In this document: positions 52,953 to 62,992 of the stretch, in pieces | How the letters are laid out: each line of letters opens with the position of its first letter | Numbering within the stretch: the stretch's first letter is position 1 | Assembly (NCBI RefSeq): GCF_003334255.1 | Contig: NZ_QOWU01000003.1 | Length of the DNA: 64,000 nucleotides | Direction: 5' to 3' (one strand) | Origin: Escherichia coli | GTDB lineage: Bacteria; Pseudomonadota; Gammaproteobacteria; Enterobacterales; Enterobacteriaceae | Program-made: the position numbers and the translations under genes | Notes under the pieces: model-generated | Told to the model about the DNA's origin: nothing | The model's input: the letters and a program-made list of their open reading frames with translations, nothing else | The model's database searches: none

Positions 52953-53073
52953 GTGCGGCCTGAAAAACAGTGCTGTGCCCTTGTAACTCATCATAATAAT
53001 TTACGGCGCAGCCAAGATTTCCCTGGTGTTGGCGCAGTATTCGCGCACCCCGGTCTAGCCGGGGTCATTTTTT
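52953..53073 (+). ncRNA. arcZ: Hfq-dependent small RNA ArcZ (SraH/RyhA), about 121 nt
   Basis: Begins GTGCGGCCTGAAAAACAGTGCTGTGCCC and ends with hairpin CACCCCGGTCTAGCCGGGGTCA followed by TTTTTT on the plus strand; the 3-prime end overlaps the arcB stop codon on the other strand. Confidence 0.8.
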
Positions 53074-55401
53074 AGTGGCTTTTGCCACCCACGCTTTCAG
53101 CACTTCTACGTCGTGACGCCACTCTTCTTTCATCTCTTCAATCCATTCACCGACGTTATCTTCCCAGGCCGGAAGGTCAGGAGACTGAATTTGCTGACCC
53201 AGCTGTTGCAGATGGCGTAACCCCACTGACCCCGCCGCACCTTTAATTTTATGTCCTTCCTCAACAATGCCTTTTTTATCCTGCGCCGTCAGATTCGACT
53301 CCAGCACGCTGACATAGCCCGGCATCATCTTCTCAAACACCGCTAACCCGTCGGTGATCAGCTTCGGTCCTACAAGTTCGAGATACTGTTCCAGCATGGG
53401 AATATCGAGCAATGCTTCTGATTTACTGTTCTCTTCTGTCGTCACCGTACTCTCCTCATCATCCTGGGTATCCCAGAATTTCTTGATCATCGCGGTTAGC
53501 GCCGGAACAGAAAGCGGCTTACTCAGCACATCATCCATTCCAGCATTGAGGTACTCTTGTTTGTCTTTCAGCACGTTAGCGGTTAAGGCCACCAGCGGCG
53601 GTAAATCCTCGCGCGGATAACGTTTCGTCAGTTCACGAGAGATATCCAGCCCGGTCATATCTGGCAACTGAATATCCAGCAACACCAGGTCGTATTCGCC
53701 CGGTTTAAACATCTCCAGCGCCGCCTTGCCGGTCATGGCGACATCAACGCTGTTACCTAATTTTTCCAGCACAGAACGCGCAACAATCACGTTCAGTTCA
53801 ATGTCTTCCACCAGCAGCACATTCAGCGCCGGTAAAGGCATATCGTCTTCATCAAACGCATCATCGACCTCTTCTGCTACCGACGGTGCGTGGATCGTCA
53901 ACGTAAAGGTTGAACCTTTGCCCTGTTCGCTGGTAACCGTAATATCGCCGCCCATATTTTTCGCCAGACGACGAGAAACGGCCAGACCAATACCGGTGCC
54001 GGTGGCAGGTTTACCGCCATGACTGTCTTTCACCTGGTAATACATGGCGAAAATTTTATCCAGCTCATCCTGCGGAATGCCGATACCAGAGTCTTCCACT
54101 TCAAAATGCAGCATATCGCCTTCATCGTAGCGCACGCGCACGGTAACCTGGCCTTGCTGGGTGAATTTGACGGCGTTACTGATGAGGTTCCACAGGATCT
54201 GCCGTAAACGCGTCCCGTCGGTAATGACCTGATGCGGTAATGGCAGCGTCGGCTCCAGGTTAAAGCGCAATCCTTTTTGTTGCGCCTGCAATGCGGAGAG
54301 ATTTTCCAGATCGGCAAGGAAGCTGGTGAAATCAACCGGTTGATTATCAAGCTGGACCTTGCGCCGTTCCATCTTATCCATGTCGATAATATCGTTAAAG
54401 ATATTCCCCAGCGTGACGGCCGAAACATGGATGGTCTTGAGATATTTTTCCTGCTCGGCGGTGAGTTCGGTATCCAGCAGAATGCGGCTCAGACCGACGA
54501 TACCGTTCAGCGGTGTACGCAATTCGTGACTGATGGTGGAGATAAACGTCGTTTTGTCGCGGCTGGCCCGTTCAAGCGCATCCTGATACCGCTTACGCTC
54601 GGTAATGTCGCGACCAAAGCCCATCAAACCGTGACGTTTACCCACGCGGTCGTAGTACGGCACTTTACGGATTTCAAAGCAGGCTTTGCGCCCGTCCGGG
54701 TAATCCAGCCACTGTTCATAGGTCAGTGACACATTATGACGGAACACTTTTTCATCGGTTTCAATGACTTTTGCGGCGGCTTCCGGTGAGTAAACATCAG
54801 CAGGTTTCAGGTGAACCAGTTGTTTTTCGCTTTTTCCGGTCAGCAGCTCCATCGCGCGGTTACAGCCGGAAAACTCTTTATCTTCGTTACGATAAAAAAC
54901 CAGGTCGGGTGAAGCATCAAGGAAGGAACGTAAGAATGAGGATTGCTGCTCGAGCTGAATTTGTGTCTCTTCGCGCTCTTTGATTTCAATTTTCAGTTGG
55001 CCGAAGGTTTCCTGCAGTTCTGCTTCCGCTTTTTCACGAACGGCAATTTCCTGATTTAGCTGGGCAATATTATCTTTTAACTGAACGTTGAGGCTCAAAT
55101 CGCGCTCGCGCATCTCCTCCAGTTTTTGCACCAGCCGTGACAGACGTTGTCGTGACTCCTCCAGTTGCTCGACGACCACCGATAGAAAGTAGACCGCCCA
55201 CGGCGTAATCAGCAAACCAAAGAAGATAGAACGAATAACATCAATGCTTTCGACCTGACCATGCAGCACCATGGTTACCGCCATTTGTACCACAATGGCA
55301 AGAACGACGAGGGCCAGCGCCAGCAACATTGAGAAGCGCACCAGACCTAACTTCATCATCAGGTCAACATAATACTGCGCCAGCAGACGAATTTGCTTCA
55401 T
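53065..55401 (-). CDS. arcB: Hybrid sensor histidine kinase ArcB, 778 aa
   Basis: ORF track; H-box ISHELRTPLN, receiver domain LLVEDIELNV...LLDIQLPDMTG, C-terminal HPt domain. Confidence 0.95.
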   Translation of the reverse strand: MKQIRLLAQYYVDLMMKLGLVRFSMLLALALVVLAIVVQMAVTMVLHGQVESIDVIRSIFFGLLITPWAVYFLSVVVEQLEESRQRLSRLVQKLEEMRERDLSLNVQLKDNIAQLNQEIAVREKAEAELQETFGQLKIEIKEREETQIQLEQQSSFLRSFLDASPDLVFYRNEDKEFSGCNRAMELLTGKSEKQLVHLKPADVYSPEAAAKVIETDEKVFRHNVSLTYEQWLDYPDGRKACFEIRKVPYYDRVGKRHGLMGFGRDITERKRYQDALERASRDKTTFISTISHELRTPLNGIVGLSRILLDTELTAEQEKYLKTIHVSAVTLGNIFNDIIDMDKMERRKVQLDNQPVDFTSFLADLENLSALQAQQKGLRFNLEPTLPLPHQVITDGTRLRQILWNLISNAVKFTQQGQVTVRVRYDEGDMLHFEVEDSGIGIPQDELDKIFAMYYQVKDSHGGKPATGTGIGLAVSRRLAKNMGGDITVTSEQGKGSTFTLTIHAPSVAEEVDDAFDEDDMPLPALNVLLVEDIELNVIVARSVLEKLGNSVDVAMTGKAALEMFKPGEYDLVLLDIQLPDMTGLDISRELTKRYPREDLPPLVALTANVLKDKQEYLNAGMDDVLSKPLSVPALTAMIKKFWDTQDDEESTVTTEENSKSEALLDIPMLEQYLELVGPKLITDGLAVFEKMMPGYVSVLESNLTAQDKKGIVEEGHKIKGAAGSVGLRHLQQLGQQIQSPDLPAWEDNVGEWIEEMKEEWRHDVEVLKAWVAKATKK

Positions 55402-55451: not shown

Positions 55452-56426
55452 TTACGTTATAAATTGTGTGAGAAATGCGGAATTCCCCTCAACGACCCAC
55501 TCCGTTGGAGGTAGCCACGGACGTCCCAGCGCCGATCCCTGTACGCCATGTTCATTCAGATAGCGATCCAGCTCGACCATTCCCGTCCATCGATTTTCGC
55601 ACCACAGCGGAGCAAGCAGCGTCGGGCGACGGGCGCTGGCGGAAATGCGGTGGTAGATCACTTCCGGTGGCGTATGGCGAATCATTTCTCCGGCAGTGAG
55701 CGTGTAATCCTCCAGTTCAATACCGTTCAAACGCCCCGCTTCCCAGGCTTTCGCCATAATGCTGCCTTTCACAATATGCAGCGGATGCAGCTTTATGCCG
55801 TCCACGCCGGTTTCAACCACTCGCTCCAGCGTTTGCAAACATTCAGCCTGCCCTTCGCCAGGCAGGCCGACAATTAAGTGGGAACACACCTTCAGCCCGC
55901 GCTGACGTGCCAGCTGGGTTGTACGCTGATAACAGGCAAAATCATGGCCGCGGTTGATGCGATGCAGTGTTTTGTCGTGGGCGGTTTGTAGCCCCAGCTC
56001 CAGCCACACTTCGTAACCCTGGTCCTTATATTCGCAAAGCAGATCCAGCACCGCATCCGGCACGCAGTCCGGGCGGGTACCCACACACAAACCGACAATA
56101 TTGGCCTGGCTCACCGCCTGCTGATACATAGAACGCAGCACCTGAACTTCCGCAAAGGTGCTGGTATACGCCTGAAAGTAGGCCAGATAGCGTTTAGCGC
56201 GGTTAACTAAATTCGCCTGGTGCGCCAGTTGCTCGGCAATGGAACGATGCTGCTGCGCTTCATCGGCAAACGAGGCAACATTACAGAATGTGCAGCCACC
56301 ACGCCCGATGGTACCGTCACGGTTAGGGCAGCTAAAACCGCCGTGCAGCGTCAGCTTATGCACCTTTTGCCCATAACGACGGGTGAGATCACCACCAAAC
56401 ATATTGACTAATTTCTGTAACTGCAT
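55452..56426 (-). CDS. yhcC: Radical-SAM family protein YhcC (start uncertain)
   Basis: ORF track 55452..56459; TIGR01212-like; start provisionally placed at MQLQKLVNMFGG; alternative starts at the upstream ATG or at MFGG. Confidence 0.75.
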   Translation of the reverse strand: MQLQKLVNMFGGDLTRRYGQKVHKLTLHGGFSCPNRDGTIGRGGCTFCNVASFADEAQQHRSIAEQLAHQANLVNRAKRYLAYFQAYTSTFAEVQVLRSMYQQAVSQANIVGLCVGTRPDCVPDAVLDLLCEYKDQGYEVWLELGLQTAHDKTLHRINRGHDFACYQRTTQLARQRGLKVCSHLIVGLPGEGQAECLQTLERVVETGVDGIKLHPLHIVKGSIMAKAWEAGRLNGIELEDYTLTAGEMIRHTPPEVIYHRISASARRPTLLAPLWCENRWTGMVELDRYLNEHGVQGSALGRPWLPPTEWVVEGNSAFLTQFIT

Positions 56427-57100
56427 AATCTGATAGACCGCGCCTTGAAAAGAGGCCAAAGCCTGCCATTTTTAGCTCAATTCGGCGATGACCTGGATCA
56501 ATCGTCCCGGCCTGCTTTTATCAACTGCATAATCAATCAAAATTACCGAAATTTCATGCATAATCACATAAATCACTTTTGCTTATCTTGTGTCAGATTT
56601 TTTTATCTCCTGATGGATTTTAGGCAAAAACAGTAGCATGAAACGTCATTACCAATTAAGGCAGTATAAAATGCTGGTTTTGTCGTCAGTTCAAGGCAGG
56701 ATAAGGGTTAACACACCTTTATGACAGTCAGGAATTGACTGTTTCTCTAACGACTTCCCTTTTAGCCTTAAAGATAAAATCCATTTTAATTTCAGTCATT
56801 TAATAAAGAATTTTGCGCTAAAGCACATTTCTGTACCAATAAGCTTGCCATTTGACCTGTATCAGCTTTCCCGATAAGTTGGAAATCCGCTGGAAGCTTT
56901 CTGGATGAGCAGCCTGCTCATCATATTTATGCAGTAATTGAGATCCCCTCTTCACCGTATTAACCGATGCGAAAAGGACAACAAGGGGGCGAATGCGAGG
57001 CGCGCGTATGACACGCAAACCCCGTCGCCACGCTCTTTCTGTGCCCGTGCGCAGCGGTTCGGAAGTGGGGTTCCCGCAGAGCCTGGGGGAGGTTCACGAT

Positions 57101-60100
57101 ATGTTGTACGATAAATCCCTTGAGAGGGATAACTGTGGTTTCGGCCTGATCGCCCACATAGAAGGCGAACCTAGCCACAAGGTAGTGCGTACTGCAATAC
57201 ACGCACTGGCCCGCATGCAGCACCGTGGCGCGATTCTCGCCGATGGTAAAACCGGCGACGGTTGCGGCTTGCTGTTACAAAAACCGGATCGCTTTTTTCG
57301 CATCGTTGCGCAGGAGCGCGGCTGGCGTTTAGCAAAAAACTACGCTGTCGGGATGCTCTTCCTGAATAAAGATCCTGAACTCGCCGCTGCCGCACGCCGC
57401 ATCGTTGAAGAAGAACTGCAACGCGAAACCTTGTCGATTGTGGGCTGGCGTGATGTCCCCACTAACGAAGGCGTGCTGGGTGAAATCGCCCTCTCCTCTC
57501 TGCCACGCATTGAGCAAATTTTTGTGAACGCCCCGGCAGGCTGGCGTCCACGCGATATGGAGCGCCGTCTGTTTATCGCCCGCCGCCGCATTGAAAAGCG
57601 TCTCGAAGCCGACAAAGACTTCTACGTCTGTAGCCTGTCGAATCTGGTGAACATCTATAAAGGTCTGTGTATGCCGACGGATCTGCCGCGCTTTTATCTG
57701 GATCTTGCGGACCTGCGTCTGGAATCGGCCATTTGCCTGTTCCACCAGCGCTTCTCCACTAACACCGTACCGCGCTGGCCGCTGGCGCAACCGTTCCGCT
57801 ATCTGGCGCATAACGGTGAAATCAACACCATCACCGGTAACCGCCAATGGGCGCGTGCGCGTACTTATAAATTCCAGACACCGCTTATCCCTGACCTGCA
57901 CGACGCCGCACCGTTCGTCAACGAAACCGGCTCTGACTCCAGTTCGATGGATAACATGCTGGAACTGCTGCTGGCAGGCGGGATGGATATCATCCGCGCC
58001 ATGCGTCTATTAGTACCACCCGCCTGGCAGAACAACCCGGATATGGACCCGGAACTGCGTGCCTTCTTTGACTTTAACTCCATGCATATGGAGCCGTGGG
58101 ATGGCCCGGCGGGCATCGTGATGTCCGACGGTCGTTTTGCCGCCTGTAACCTCGACCGTAACGGTCTGCGTCCGGCGCGCTACGTCATCACCAAAGATAA
58201 GCTCATCACCTGCGCCTCTGAAGTCGGTATCTGGGATTACCAGCCTGACGAAGTGGTCGAAAAAGGCCGCGTCGGGCCAGGCGAACTGATGGTTATCGAC
58301 ACCCGCAGTGGGCGTATTCTGCACTCGGCAGAAACCGATGACGATCTGAAAAGCCGCCATCCATATAAAGAGTGGATGGAGAAAAACGTCCGCCGACTGG
58401 TACCGTTTGAAGATCTGCCCGATGAAGAAGTGGGTAGCCGCGAACTGGACGACGACACGCTTGCCAGCTACCAGAAACAGTTTAACTACAGCGCGGAAGA
58501 GCTGGACTCCGTAATTCGCGTACTGGGCGAAAACGGTCAGGAAGCGGTCGGTTCGATGGGCGATGATACCCCATTCGCCGTGCTCTCCAGTCAGCCGCGC
58601 ATTATTTACGACTACTTCCGCCAGCAGTTTGCCCAGGTGACTAACCCGCCAATCGACCCGCTGCGTGAAGCGCATGTTATGTCGCTCGCCACCAGTATCG
58701 GTCGTGAAATGAACGTCTTTTGCGAAGCAGAGGGCCAGGCGCACCGTTTAAGCTTTAAATCGCCGATTCTGCTCTACTCCGATTTCAAACAGCTCACGAC
58801 GATGAAAGAGGAGCACTACCGCGCAGATACGCTGGATATCACCTTTGACGTCACTAAAACCACGCTCGAAGCGACAGTCAAAGAGCTGTGCGACAAAGCC
58901 GAAAAAATGGTACGTAGCGGCACCGTGCTGCTGGTGCTCTCCGACCGGAATATCGCTAAAGATCGCCTGCCGGTTCCAGCCCCGATGGCGGTTGGCGCGA
59001 TCCAGACCCGTCTGGTCGATCAAAGCCTGCGTTGCGATGCCAACATCATCGTCGAAACCGCCAGCGCCCGCGATCCGCACCACTTCGCCGTGTTGCTGGG
59101 CTTCGGCGCGACGGCTATTTATCCATACCTTGCCTATGAAACGCTGGGCCGCCTGGTAGACACCCATGCGATTGCCAAAGATTATCGTACCGTGATGCTC
59201 AACTACCGTAACGGCATCAACAAAGGCTTGTACAAAATCATGTCCAAAATGGGCATCTCCACCATCGCCTCTTACCGCTGCTCGAAACTGTTTGAAGCGG
59301 TCGGTCTACACGATGATGTAGTGGGCCTGTGCTTCCAGGGGGCGGTCAGCCGCATTGGTGGAGCAAGCTTTGAAGACTTCCAGCAGGATCTGCTGAATCT
59401 GTCGAAACGTGCCTGGCTGGCGCGTAAGCCCATCAGCCAGGGCGGTCTGCTGAAATACGTCCACGGCGGCGAATACCACGCCTACAACCCGGACGTGGTG
59501 CGCACGCTGCAACAAGCGGTACAAAGCGGCGAGTACAGCGACTATCAGGAATACGCGAAGCTGGTTAATGAGCGTCCGGCAACCACGCTGCGCGATCTGC
59601 TGGCAATTACGCCGGGTGAAAACGCGGTCAACATTGCTGATGTTGAACCGGCAAGCGAACTGTTTAAACGCTTTGATACCGCCGCGATGTCTATCGGCGC
59701 GTTAAGCCCGGAAGCCCACGAGGCGCTGGCGGAAGCGATGAACAGCATCGGCGGTAATTCGAACTCCGGTGAAGGCGGCGAAGACCCGGCGCGCTACGGC
59801 ACCAACAAAGTGTCGCGCATCAAGCAGGTGGCTTCCGGTCGCTTTGGGGTTACTCCGGCGTATCTGGTCAATGCCGACGTCATTCAGATTAAAGTCGCCC
59901 AGGGCGCGAAGCCAGGCGAAGGCGGTCAGTTGCCGGGTGATAAAGTCACGCCTTACATCGCCAAACTGCGCTATTCGGTGCCCGGAGTGACGCTGATCTC
60001 CCCGCCGCCGCACCACGATATCTACTCTATCGAGGACTTAGCGCAGCTCATTTTCGACCTCAAGCAGGTTAACCCGAAAGCGATGATCTCCGTGAAGCTG

Positions 60101-61561
60101 GTTTCCGAACCGGGAGTAGGCACCATCGCGACTGGCGTGGCAAAAGCTTATGCGGACTTGATCACCATCGCAGGCTATGACGGCGGCACCGGCGCAAGTC
60201 CGCTTTCATCGGTGAAATACGCAGGCTGTCCGTGGGAGCTGGGGCTTGTTGAAACCCAGCAGGCGCTGGTTGCTAACGGCTTGCGTCACAAGATCCGTTT
60301 GCAGGTCGATGGCGGCCTGAAAACGGGTGTCGATATCATCAAGGCGGCGATTCTCGGCGCAGAAAGCTTCGGCTTCGGCACTGGCCCGATGGTGGCGCTC
60401 GGCTGTAAATATCTACGTATTTGCCATCTGAACAACTGCGCAACGGGTGTAGCAACTCAGGATGACAAACTGCGTAAGAACCACTATCACGGCCTGCCAT
60501 TCAAGGTGACGAATTACTTTGAGTTTATCGCCCGTGAAACCCGCGAGCTGATGGCACAGCTTGGCGTAACACGTCTGGTGGATCTGATTGGTCGCACCGA
60601 CCTGCTGAAAGAGCTGGACGGTTTCACCGCCAAACAGCAGAAGCTGGCGCTGTCGAAGCTGCTGGAGACTGCCGAACCGCATCCAGGTAAGGCACTCTAC
60701 TGCACCGAAAACAACCCGCCGTTTGATAACGGCCTGCTGAACGCGCAGTTGCTGCAACAGGCGAAACCGTTTGTCGATGAGCGCCAGAGCAAAACCTTCT
60801 GGTTCGATATTCGCAACACCGACCGTTCTGTCGGCGCGTCGCTTTCAGGCTATATCGCCCAGACGCACGGCGATCAGGGGCTGGCAGCCGATCCTATCAA
60901 AGCGTACTTCAACGGCACCGCAGGCCAGAGCTTCGGCGTGTGGAACGCGGGCGGCGTGGAACTGTACCTGACCGGTGATGCCAACGACTATGTCGGTAAA
61001 GGCATGGCGGGCGGCTTAATCGCCATTCGTCCTCCGGTTGGTTCCGCCTTCCGCAGCCATGAAGCAAGCATTATCGGCAACACCTGCCTGTATGGCGCGA
61101 CCGGTGGTCGTCTGTATGCCGCAGGCCGCGCGGGTGAACGTTTCGGCGTGCGTAACTCCGGTGCTATCACCGTGGTAGAAGGCATTGGCGACAACGGTTG
61201 TGAATATATGACGGGTGGTATCGTCTGCATTCTGGGTAAAACCGGCGTTAACTTCGGTGCGGGCATGACCGGCGGTTTCGCTTACGTTCTCGATGAAAGC
61301 GGCGATTTCCGCAAACGCGTTAACCCGGAACTGGTCGAGGTCTTAAGCGTTGACGCTCTGGCGATCCATGAAGAGCATCTGCGTGGTCTTATCACCGAGC
61401 ATGTGCAGCATACCGGCTCTCAGCGCGGTGAAGAGATTCTGGCGAACTGGTCAACCTTCGCCACTAAATTTGCGCTGGTTAAACCGAAGTCCAGTGATGT
61501 AAAAGCACTGCTGGGTCACCGTAGTCGTAGCGCAGCTGAGTTGCGCGTGCAGGCGCAGTAA
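57101..61561 (+). CDS. gltB: Glutamate synthase (NADPH) large subunit GltB, 1486 aa from [12 protein letters not shown]
   Basis: ORF track 56993..61561; Ntn amidotransferase nucleophile Cys in [12 protein letters not shown]; the ORF extends 36 codons upstream of the ATG used here. Confidence 0.92.

Positions 61562-62992
<1,431 letters not shown>

Follow-up and report, generated by a model that had tools for sequence, protein, structure and literature searches.

Removal of an N-terminal segment to expose a cysteine is established in the enzyme family of glutamate synthase, and in another class-II amidotransferase, the glutamine PRPP amidotransferase PurF of Bacillus subtilis, an 11-residue propeptide has to come off before the nucleophilic Cys is free. 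The N-terminus of E. coli GltB was reportedly sequenced by Oliver and colleagues in 1987. Textbooks or databases already cover the E. coli gene, the architecture of its promoter, its short true start and the maturation in which a propeptide precedes Cys. For the glt operon, regulation by Lrp, IHF, Crp and ArgR has been described (Paul et al., 2007; PMC1784095), and in this published work the leader of the gltBDF mRNA appears only as part of fusions spanning −406 to +246, its RNA structure not being described. Because the published fusions carry either the whole leader (−406 to +246) or none of it (−326 to +7), a post-transcriptional contribution to gltBDF expression could have escaped notice. 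In Vibrio alginolyticus, CsrA binds gltB RNA (−100 to +100) with high affinity, and mutation of csrA raises GltBD more than 70-fold (PMC12298160).

In the window, the 64,000-nt stretch of E. coli DNA analysed here, the intergenic region between yhcC (mnmL) and gltB is 100% identical with the chromosomes of sequenced strains, and the region was found in 5417 of 5426 genomes. The divergent neighbour yhcC/mnmL (55497–56426, minus strand) encodes a tRNA-modification radical SAM protein (annotated so in RefSeq for K-12 and for an identical strain; TIGR01212, 472.8 bits), and 674 bp separate its start at 56426 from the annotated gltB ATG at 57101, while the first in-frame ATG, at 56993, lies at a distance of 566 bp. 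The gltB coding sequence (57101–61561, plus strand, 1486 aa) scores 2930.9 bits against the curated equivalog model NF008730, for which the cut-off is 1047, with residues 1–1486 aligned on profile positions 4–1490, and the small-subunit gene gltD (61574–62992, plus strand; open reading frame with TIGR01318, 898 bits) follows directly downstream, the arrangement by which membership of GltB is recognised. We are highly confident that this is the ordinary gltBDF control region, in which A/T-rich sites and a sigma-70 promoter precede a 216-nt untranslated structured leader, the ATG at 57101 and an 11-residue propeptide ending before Cys, and in which the in-frame extension above the ATG is a chance frame. 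For this reading the identity of the locus, the conservation of the start, the non-coding nature of the extension and the helix covariation come from the present analysis, the protein sites and the transcription start site (TSS) from the literature, and the function of the leader from inference.

The preliminary description of this DNA had placed about 530 bp of non-coding sequence with A/T tracts before gltB, corresponding to 56460–56993. The A/T-rich stretch is real, but almost all of it lies upstream of the TSS (56427–56884, 37.6% GC), and part of the interval is the transcribed, GC-rich structured leader (56.9% GC over the 5′ UTR, 65.7% over the in-frame extension). The complex protein control that the same description had mentioned agrees with the published Lrp, IHF, Crp and ArgR sites (PMC1784095), which can be located in the window. 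When the numbering of PMC1784095 is converted with the Crp site at 56809–56830 as anchor (the wild-type site of the mutagenic primer gltcrp1), the A/T-rich upstream regulatory region extends over 56427–56851 and holds, as unstranded features, the ArgR footprint at 56524–56567, three Lrp site centres at about 56639, 56670 and 56733, and the IHF site at 56772–56810; binding of all four proteins is taken from the literature. The primers gltP1 and gltP2 match the window at 56559 and 56872–56891, and a minus-strand "terminator" at 56827–56814 proved to be the palindromic Crp site. The published −35 element lies 21 bp from the edge of the Crp site (PMC1784095), and this position is occupied in the window by TTGACC (56852–56857), followed by a 15-bp spacer and the −10 element GATAAG (56873–56878). 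Both hexamers of this sigma-70 promoter (56852–56878, plus strand) are kept in about 50 Enterobacterales loci. A consensus promoter scan reported no promoter before gltB, which is uninformative given how atypical the real one is; it was missed because GATAAG lacks T6 and the spacer measures 15 bp. The position of the Crp site at −76 to −55 and the end of primer gltP2 at +7, both in the numbering of the paper rather than in raw data, place the TSS at about 56885. In the proposed mechanism, the ArgR, three Lrp, IHF and Crp sites in ~460 bp of A/T-rich DNA would act on the TTGACC-15-GATAAG promoter, and transcription would proceed from near 56885.

The transcript so defined would begin with a 216-nt untranslated leader (56885–57100, plus strand), in which the nucleotides are conserved and the reading frame is not. 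A hand-annotated covariance model of this leader was used to align 52 Enterobacterales leaders, and it gave one match per locus, always immediately upstream of gltB. In this alignment 88.5% of the cells are paired, compared with 78.8% after shuffling and 42–50% after sliding. Changes on both sides of a pair occur in 28 of 34 pairs against 16.8 ± 2.1 in shuffles (0 of 500) and compensatory cells number 148 against 43, values that come from related sequences in an alignment fitted to the model. RNAalifold recovered 30 of the 34 pairs; on plain MAFFT alignments it returned only P0, P1, the P3 core and P6, because the variable hairpins were misaligned. Folding of the E. coli leader as a single sequence showed no unusual stability (z = 0.22). 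A search of Rfam 15 at E ≤ 1 matched no family to the leader, and a 17.7-bit match to RF03533 (Clostridioides sRNA), with a gathering score of 128 and E = 0.37, is attributed to chance. In the literature on the gltB leader, UTR and Hfq we found nothing specific, and neither a description of a leader RNA structure nor a functional study. As judged from the aligned sequences, Enterobacterales share in this 216-nt leader a conserved multi-hairpin RNA whose helices covary.

Within the alignment, the predicted 5′ domain (56889–56935, plus strand) consists of P0, in which GCUG at 56889–56892 pairs with CAGU at 56932–56935 around the hairpin P1 (56904–56922), and of the conserved single-stranded CAUAUUUAUGCAGUAAUUGAGAU that follows. 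P1 has changes on both sides in 6 of 7 pairs; P0 is invariant, 98.8% paired and with zero covariation, and like P2 and P6 it is too invariant for covariation to be a test. A conserved pyrimidine block CCCUCU (56946–56951, plus strand) is complementary to AGGGGG/AGAGGG at 56984–56989; 88.6% of the cells are paired and only 2 pairs show double changes, and this pairing may represent an alternative that competes with the closing stem of P3. P3 itself (56983–57037, plus strand) is composed of the closing stem 56983–56987/57033–57037, the core 56988–56992/57025–57029, P3a 56994–57001/57019–57024 and the apical P3b 57004–57007/57013–57016. Across the 52 leaders all 20 of its pairs have changes on both sides in some sequence, with 84–95% of cells paired, and it encloses ATG 56993 in its stem and a second in-frame ATG, at 57008, in its apical loop. 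Two smaller hairpins follow on the plus strand, P4 (57040–57053, UGUGC/GCGCA; double changes in 5 of 5 pairs, 78% paired) and P5 (57067–57075, GGG/CCC, in other genera GUGA/UCAC or GAGA/UCUC; double changes in 3 of 3 pairs, 78.7% paired). The last is the invariant Shine-Dalgarno (SD) hairpin P6, GAGCCU-GGGGG-AGGUUC (57079–57095, plus strand), which is 98.7% paired in the 52 leaders and so nearly invariant that covariation is no test of it. The SD core GGAGG at 57088–57092 straddles the loop and the 3′ strand of P6 (ΔG −8.2 kcal/mol), with half of it in each, and its AGG is predicted to be paired.

What this architecture of P0/P1, the long P3 carrying both spurious ATGs, P4, P5 and P6 does can be proposed in outline. 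The leader would set or modulate ribosome access and mRNA stability, with P6 holding the AGG of the SD paired until the hairpin is melted or remodelled, a step in which a trans-acting factor may take part. We put forward tentatively, and below the level of a probable reading, that the leader is an undescribed Enterobacterales-wide cis-regulatory RNA in which P0/P1, P3 with P3a and P3b, P4 and P5 lead up to an invariant SD-sequestering hairpin, perhaps with the CCCUCU block competing for the 5′ strand of P3. If this is true, ammonia assimilation would have a post-transcriptional layer, as a switch of SD access, by recruitment of CsrA or of an sRNA, or by gating of Rho or RNase entry, and this might explain regulation of GOGAT that the Lrp/IHF/Crp/ArgR promoter model does not cover. 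We regard the leader RNA as a modest new lead, as it belongs to a major ammonia-assimilation operon of E. coli, its helices covary across the order and it has no Rfam family.

The leader might instead offer a docking site to a trans-acting regulator that works post-transcriptionally on translation or mRNA half-life, which we hold to be rather unlikely while granting it an appreciable chance. CsrA would be the most plausible regulator, with GGA at the SD hairpin and about 20–27 nt upstream, and an Hfq-dependent sRNA would be the alternative. In addition to the binding and the GltBD increase in V. alginolyticus, E. coli gltB mRNA was co-purified with CsrA (Edwards, 2011) and decays faster in a csrA mutant, with a half-life of 4.7 instead of 7.9 min. 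The SD GGA sits at the loop-stem junction of P6, and a further GGA lies 18–27 nt above it in 35 of 51 leaders, compared with 19.5 expected. Against CsrA, E. coli CLIP-seq is scored "No" at gltB and the translation efficiency in the csrA mutant changes by a log fold change of 0.03 (Potts et al., 2017), so that co-purification and the half-life change stand as the only positive results, next to negative ones for in vivo crosslinking and CsrA-dependent translation. Moreover, the upstream GGA is missing in Yersiniaceae and Pectobacteriaceae, which retain the structure, and the Vibrio leader is not homologous. An sRNA would fit with the drop of GltB and GltD protein upon OmrA/B overproduction, but this effect may be indirect according to its authors, and by eye the OmrA/B seed forms 5–6 bp only with the CCCUCU block. 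The invariant GCUGGAAGC at +5 also counts in favour of such a docking role.

That the conservation reflects DNA-level signals, such as operators past the TSS or promoter-proximal elements, rather than RNA structure is improbable in our view. In its favour, no covariation is seen in the +1 to +20 block, the CAUAUUUAUGCAGUAAUUGAGAUUCCCUC block or the SD block, all of them invariant, and for this region a putative Fnr site and further regulators have been suggested; however, P1, P3, P3a, P3b, P4 and P5 vary on both strands and yet stay paired, and the shuffled and slid controls lie far lower. We give an equally small chance to P1 and the U-rich tract AUAUUUAU acting as an early pause site or attenuator, at which some transcripts would be aborted about 45 nt from the start. 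A terminator scan flagged P1 for its 8-bp stem with 4 G-C pairs, the hairpin (ΔG −11.1 kcal/mol) covaries and its tail is conserved, but the tail is broken by A residues and makes a poor U-tract, neither a conserved leader peptide nor a clear antiterminator is present, and reports of short 5′ transcripts from gltB were looked for without result. P1 is the sole terminator-like site of the leader, and we found no conserved short open reading frame with an SD and no terminator/antiterminator pair of the kind that defines a leader-peptide attenuator. The candidate leader peptides MSSLLIIFMQ (56905) and AUG-CAG-UAA (56929) have no SD, are not conserved and are missing from Yersinia, Erwinia and Shimwellia. 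Studies using Term-seq and bicyclomycin do not mention gltB.

The remaining question concerns the gltB frame, which the preliminary description had seen open for 36 codons above the ATG. It is in fact open for 53 codons (56941–57100, plus strand), starting after the stop TAA at 56938–56940, with ATG 56993 36 codons up (MRGAR...) and ATG 57008 31 codons up (MTRKPRR...), the latter being the start of the old 1517-aa annotation. Such lengths are within chance, as 32% of dinucleotide shuffles of the UTR have at least 36 open codons, 19% have at least 53, and 14% have an in-frame ATG at least 31 codons up. In about 20 genera a stop closes the frame 7 codons above the ATG, in Tatumella and Dickeya it is closed 0–1 codons above, the homologous nucleotides fall into any of the three frames depending on the genus (e.g., PVAxLFxCxCA), MRGxRM is kept only in E. 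coli and two Citrobacter, and E. coli has a compensated +G/−T frameshift beside the SD. The stop so close to the ATG in these genera and the reading in three frames lead us to regard the extension as untranslated leader, and comparison across genera indicates that the 36 extra in-frame codons are a chance open frame through it and not protein. Within E. coli the frame is open in every strain checked, and variation (4 SNPs in 230 nt, with strains differing by up to 5% over the 901-bp query) is too sparse for a test of coding constraint. The MLYD start, the strong SD and the 11-residue propeptide up to the catalytic Cys are kept in 80 gammaproteobacterial loci, and every Enterobacterales locus has kept the ATG, the MLYD...DNC motif and a 20-nt SD block. 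Duplexes of SD and anti-SD reach −12.0 kcal/mol for ATG 57101, −5.9 for 57008 and −9.9 for 56993, the last with a spacing of only 3 nt, so that ATG 57101, with the GGAGG core 8 nt before it, alone has a strong and well-spaced SD. The current K-12 (NP_417679.2) and PGAP annotations use this start, and translation would begin here. The idea that the upstream ATGs could also serve as starts is thus not supported.

Three N-terminal versions of GltB (1486, 1517 and 1522 aa) circulate in databases, of which the shortest alone is supported, and the practical use of the observation is to caution against the others; the older 1517- and 1522-aa annotations took the extension for coding sequence. A longer precursor starting at ATG 57008 (42-residue propeptide) or 56993 (47 residues), with the extension as a real cleaved leader peptide, is very improbable, as its favourable points (a frame open in E. 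coli and two Citrobacter, the longer database forms, a 36-residue propeptide in Azospirillum brasilense GltS (6S6S versus 2VDC), and ATG 57008 in a hairpin loop) are set against an extension broken or frame-shifted in nearly all other genera despite conserved nucleotides, an SD that is weak (57008) or badly spaced (56993), curated models that begin at MLYD, the re-annotation of K-12 to the short form and a frame length within chance. Since E. coli and two Citrobacter retain the open extension, low-level initiation may occur in E. coli at ATG 57008, which is exposed in its loop with a weak GAGG 7 nt upstream; the TetRP start-site tables have no gltB entry.

From the short start at 57101, the start codon and the 11-residue propeptide span 57101–57133 (plus strand), in line with the K-12 and PGAP annotations and with NF008730, whose alignment with the 1486-aa form begins at profile position 4. 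Across the 80 gammaproteobacterial loci the conserved sequence is M-L-Y-[DN]-x3-E-[KR]-D-N-C. As had been noted beforehand, the nucleophilic Cys comes a few residues after the ATG, at codon 12 (57134–57136, plus strand; Cys12 of the precursor, Cys1 of mature GltB). Position 1 of the PF00310 (GATase_2) model aligns with it (E = 2.8e-179), the solved homologues 1EA0, 2VDC and 1LLW have chains whose first residue is the aligned Cys, and no homology reaches into the extension. Because these chains begin there, the propeptide of GltB is expected to be removed, and the GATase_2 alignment agrees with this; the earlier claim that processing has to expose the Cys is supported in this respect, while its addition that this applies whichever start is used was not borne out. 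Cys is predicted to be the free N-terminal residue of mature E. coli GltB, and the 11 precursor residues would be removed to leave it as residue 1 of the Ntn amidotransferase domain. The literature on gltB propeptides yielded nothing specific.

Compared with known systems, the CsrA-bound gltB leader of V. alginolyticus (PMC12298160) shares with the E. coli leader the gene and a GGA-containing ribosome-binding region and is subject to post-transcriptional repression, but the enterobacterial covariance model gives no match to it, and CLIP in E. coli shows no CsrA peak at gltB. The SD-sequestering 5′ UTR hairpins collected in Rfam, including RNA thermometers, ribosomal-protein leaders and CsrA-type leaders, likewise pair part of the SD just before the start, and like them the gltB leader has covarying helices before its SD hairpin; it differs in having no Rfam 15 match at E ≤ 1 and no known dependence on ligand, protein or temperature. 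B. subtilis PurF is a different enzyme from GltB and resembles it, by description, in the short propeptide before Cys. In the NADPH-GltS alpha subunit of A. brasilense (1EA0, 2VDC; full-length 6S6S) and the Fd-GltS of Synechocystis (1LLW), the mature chain starts at the Cys aligned with E. coli Cys12 and the propeptide can be aligned with that of E. coli over its final ~10 residues (LY/YNxxxExDxC), although the A. brasilense propeptide has 36 residues instead of 11 and its extra N-terminal residues are unlike the E. coli extension. E. coli K-12 gltB (b3212, NP_417679.2) with its gltBDF control region shows no substantive difference from the window: it is the same locus at 99–100% identity, with the same annotated start and 674-bp intergenic length, and its Crp site, primer sites and ARG-box-like footprint sequence are found in the window at the expected spacing.

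The region at 56400–57300 comprises the yhcC(mnmL)-gltB intergenic region and the gltB 5′ end; it is 100% identical to sequenced E. coli strains and, of 5426 complete genomes of the species, 5417 carry it in one copy. The gltB start at 57101 (+ strand) is the one used in K-12 MG1655 (b3212, NP_417679.2) and in PGAP-annotated strains, and the gltB product of 1486 aa aligns end-to-end with NF008730, the curated model for the large subunit of glutamate synthase (2930.9 bits, profile positions 4–1490), with gltD following from 61574. On the opposite strand, yhcC (55497–56426), named tRNA-modification radical SAM protein MnmL/YtqA in newer PGAP and NCBIfam releases, starts at 56426, giving an intergenic distance of 674 bp, and its neighbour arcB (53065–55401, also −) encodes a sensor kinase of 778 aa. 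The 90% identity protein cluster of GltB also contains a 426-aa "cytosine deaminase [Salmonella enterica]" (P0011), which looks like a database clustering or annotation oddity without bearing on the window. A deep-sequencing survey listed a 90-nt cis-antisense sRNA candidate opposite the gltBDF operon, ECS0018, for which the northern blot was negative (PMC3175480).

The preliminary description had noted about 530 bp of non-coding DNA with A/T tracts ahead of gltB (56460–56993). This is correct, but the tracts are confined to DNA 5′ of the transcription start: the GC content is 37.6% at 56427–56884 and 56.9% in the transcribed leader, the 216-nt 5′ UTR of the gltBDF mRNA (56885–57100). The 530 bp consist of an A/T-rich upstream activating region of about 460 bp and the first half of this leader. 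[quoted passage not shown] Site conversion was anchored on the Crp site AATTTTGCGCTAAAGCACATTT at 56809–56830, matched by a mutagenic primer of that study, from which the −35 TTGACC (56852–56857, +) and the −10 GATAAG (56873–56878, +) were placed; the numbering of the same study puts +1 near 56885 (+) and the end of its promoter fragment at 56891 (+7). The mapping is supported by two TGCATAAT-type boxes inside the converted ArgR footprint (56524–56567), and promoter hexamers and spacing are kept in about 50 Enterobacterales loci. A minus-strand terminator-like match at 56814–56827 corresponds to the palindromic half-sites of the Crp operator (TGCGCTAAAGCACA) and is no terminator.

The gltB frame is indeed open for 36 codons up to an in-frame ATG at 56993 (+), and for 53 codons in all, to a stop at 56938–56940; a second ATG at 57008 (+), 31 codons upstream, is the start of an older 1517-aa annotation, and forms of 1486, 1517, and 1522 aa in public databases document this annotation history. 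The open frame is unremarkable because the leader is G+C-rich (65.7% in the extension): in dinucleotide-preserving shuffles of the leader, an open run of 36 codons or more occurs in 32%, one of 53 or more in 19%, and an in-frame ATG lying 31 or more codons upstream in 14%. The homologous position was compared in 80 gammaproteobacterial gltB loci. Kept throughout Enterobacterales are the gltB ATG, the N-terminus M-L-Y-[DN]-x3-E-[KR]-D-N-C-G-F-G and a stretch of about 20 nt ahead of the start codon (GAGCCTGGGGAGGTTCACTGAT), while the MRGxRM... extension is retained only in E. coli and two Citrobacter. A stop seven codons upstream closes the frame in about 20 genera, and one zero to one codons upstream does so in Tatumella and Dickeya. 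The conserved leader nucleotides are read differently by genus (e.g., PVAxLFxCxCA), with frame-shifting indels between genera; at 57085–57100, the loop of the E. coli Shine-Dalgarno (SD) hairpin holds an additional G (GGGGG vs. GGGG) and the spacer is one T short (CACGAT vs. CACTGAT), a compensated pair that alters three "codons" (GEVH vs. GRFT), leaves the total length unchanged and shortens the SD-AUG distance by one nucleotide. The sole strong, well-spaced SD is that of ATG 57101 (GGAGG 8 nt upstream, −12.0 kcal/mol with the anti-SD), compared with −5.9 kcal/mol for ATG 57008 and a purine run at just 3 nt from ATG 56993, and a phmmer search of PDB chains returned no similarity 5′ of the L-Y in MLYD. 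As the frame is not conserved although the nucleotides are, as only ATG 57101 has a strong SD and as phmmer was negative, the extension is a chance ORF within an untranslated leader. The observation was accurate but ordinary, and already known in the form given; what it missed is a structured leader, a modest but testable new lead.

Leader nucleotides are strongly conserved across Enterobacterales, with four SNPs in 230 nt within E. coli. A covariance model built for the 3′ domain (121 positions, 34 pairs) matches once per locus, always adjoining the gltB ATG, in 52 loci of Enterobacteriaceae, Erwiniaceae, Yersiniaceae, Pectobacteriaceae, Hafniaceae, and Photorhabdus, and once in the 64-kb window (56981–57103, 106.6 bits); the Budvicia, Morganella, Orbales, Aeromonas, Vibrio, and Pseudoalteromonas loci gave no match. 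In this model-fitted alignment of related sequences, 88.5% of cells are paired vs. 78.8 ± 0.5% in shuffles and 42–50% with slid partners, both sides change at 28 of 34 pairs vs. 16.8 ± 2.1 (reached by 0 of 500 shuffles), and 148 cells are compensatory vs. 43. An independent RNAalifold run on the same alignment recovered 30 of the 34 pairs. The leader helices are thus conserved, covarying pairings across Enterobacterales; the E. coli leader folds with no more than ordinary stability (z = 0.22), no Rfam family matches it, and a literature search found no paper on it.

The 3′ domain (+ strand throughout) contains P3 (56983–57037), with ATG 56993 within the stem and ATG 57008 in the apical loop ATGAC, P4 (57040–57053), P5 (57067–57075), and P6 (57079–57084/57090–57095), an invariant hairpin GAGCCU-GGGG(G)-AGGUUC of −8.2 kcal/mol in which the AGG of the SD is predicted to be paired, so that the SD is half-buried in a hairpin that lies 5 nt ahead of the AUG. 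In the 5′ domain, the P1 hairpin (56904–56922) shows double changes at six of seven pairs; P0 (GCUG/CAGU) and P2 are conserved and too invariant for a covariation test. P2 (GCAAGUcc..ACUUGU; stem CAAGU/ACUUG; columns 100–130 of alignment A1) is found in nearly all other enterobacterial genera and lost in E. coli, which has the unrelated UUCACCGUAUUAACC in its place (56950–56975), apparently by a lineage-specific deletion or replacement. A conserved CCCUCU block (56946–56951) is complementary to the P3 5′ strand AGAGGG (56984–56989); this pairing is weakly supported, with 88.6% paired and double changes at two pairs, and apparently compensating changes in Hafnia, Tatumella morbirosei, Edwardsiella, and Candidatus Pantoea persica carry weak statistics. 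Because this pairing and the P3 closing stem are mutually exclusive, the block may compete with that stem as a conformational switch.

We infer that the leader might tune ribosome access and/or mRNA stability. A candidate effector is CsrA, which in V. alginolyticus is a tightly binding repressor of gltB RNA (PMC12298160). In E. coli, the gltB transcript co-purified with CsrA and is shorter-lived when csrA is mutated (half-life 4.7 min instead of 7.9 min), and of 51 leaders 35 have a GGA 18–27 nt ahead of the SD GGA, where 19.5 are expected; however, gltB has no CLIP peak in the E. coli CsrA data, its translation efficiency is the same in the csrA mutant, and the upstream GGA is absent in two families that keep the leader structure. 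An early pause or attenuator at P1 and AUAUUUAU is a weaker reading, since the small ORFs of the leader, MSSLLIIFMQ (56905–56937, +; its first ATG at 56905 part of the P1 stem) and a nested AUG-CAG-UAA (56929, +), both without SD, are not conserved across the enterobacterial leaders compared: the stop of AUG-CAG is kept as UAA, UAG, or UGA in many genera and lost (UUA) in several. Purely DNA-level conservation of the leader, set against its covarying helices, is likewise weaker.

The Ntn mechanism of class-II amidotransferases is established, and propeptide removal is therefore needed for GltB, whose nucleophile Cys is codon 12 (57134–57136, +), aligned with position 1 of Pfam GATase_2. N-terminal sequencing of E. 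coli GltB by Oliver et al. in 1987 reportedly showed this removal, and UniProt gives the propeptide as residues 1–11. Strong conservation of these 11 residues across loci suggests that the propeptide may have a role of its own. In Aeromonas, Vibrio, Grimontia, and Enterovibrio, GltB begins M-[SA]-L-Y-D-P...DNC with a propeptide of 12 residues; the ribosome site there is AAGGGAGA, and the leaders share no homology with that of the enterobacteria. The reasoning that the Cys must be exposed by processing was right and already known. The deposited chains of Azospirillum brasilense GltS (1EA0, 2VDC) and Synechocystis Fd-GltS (1LLW) have the aligned Cys as their first residue; in 6S6S, the entry for full-length A. 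brasilense GltS, 36 residues precede it.
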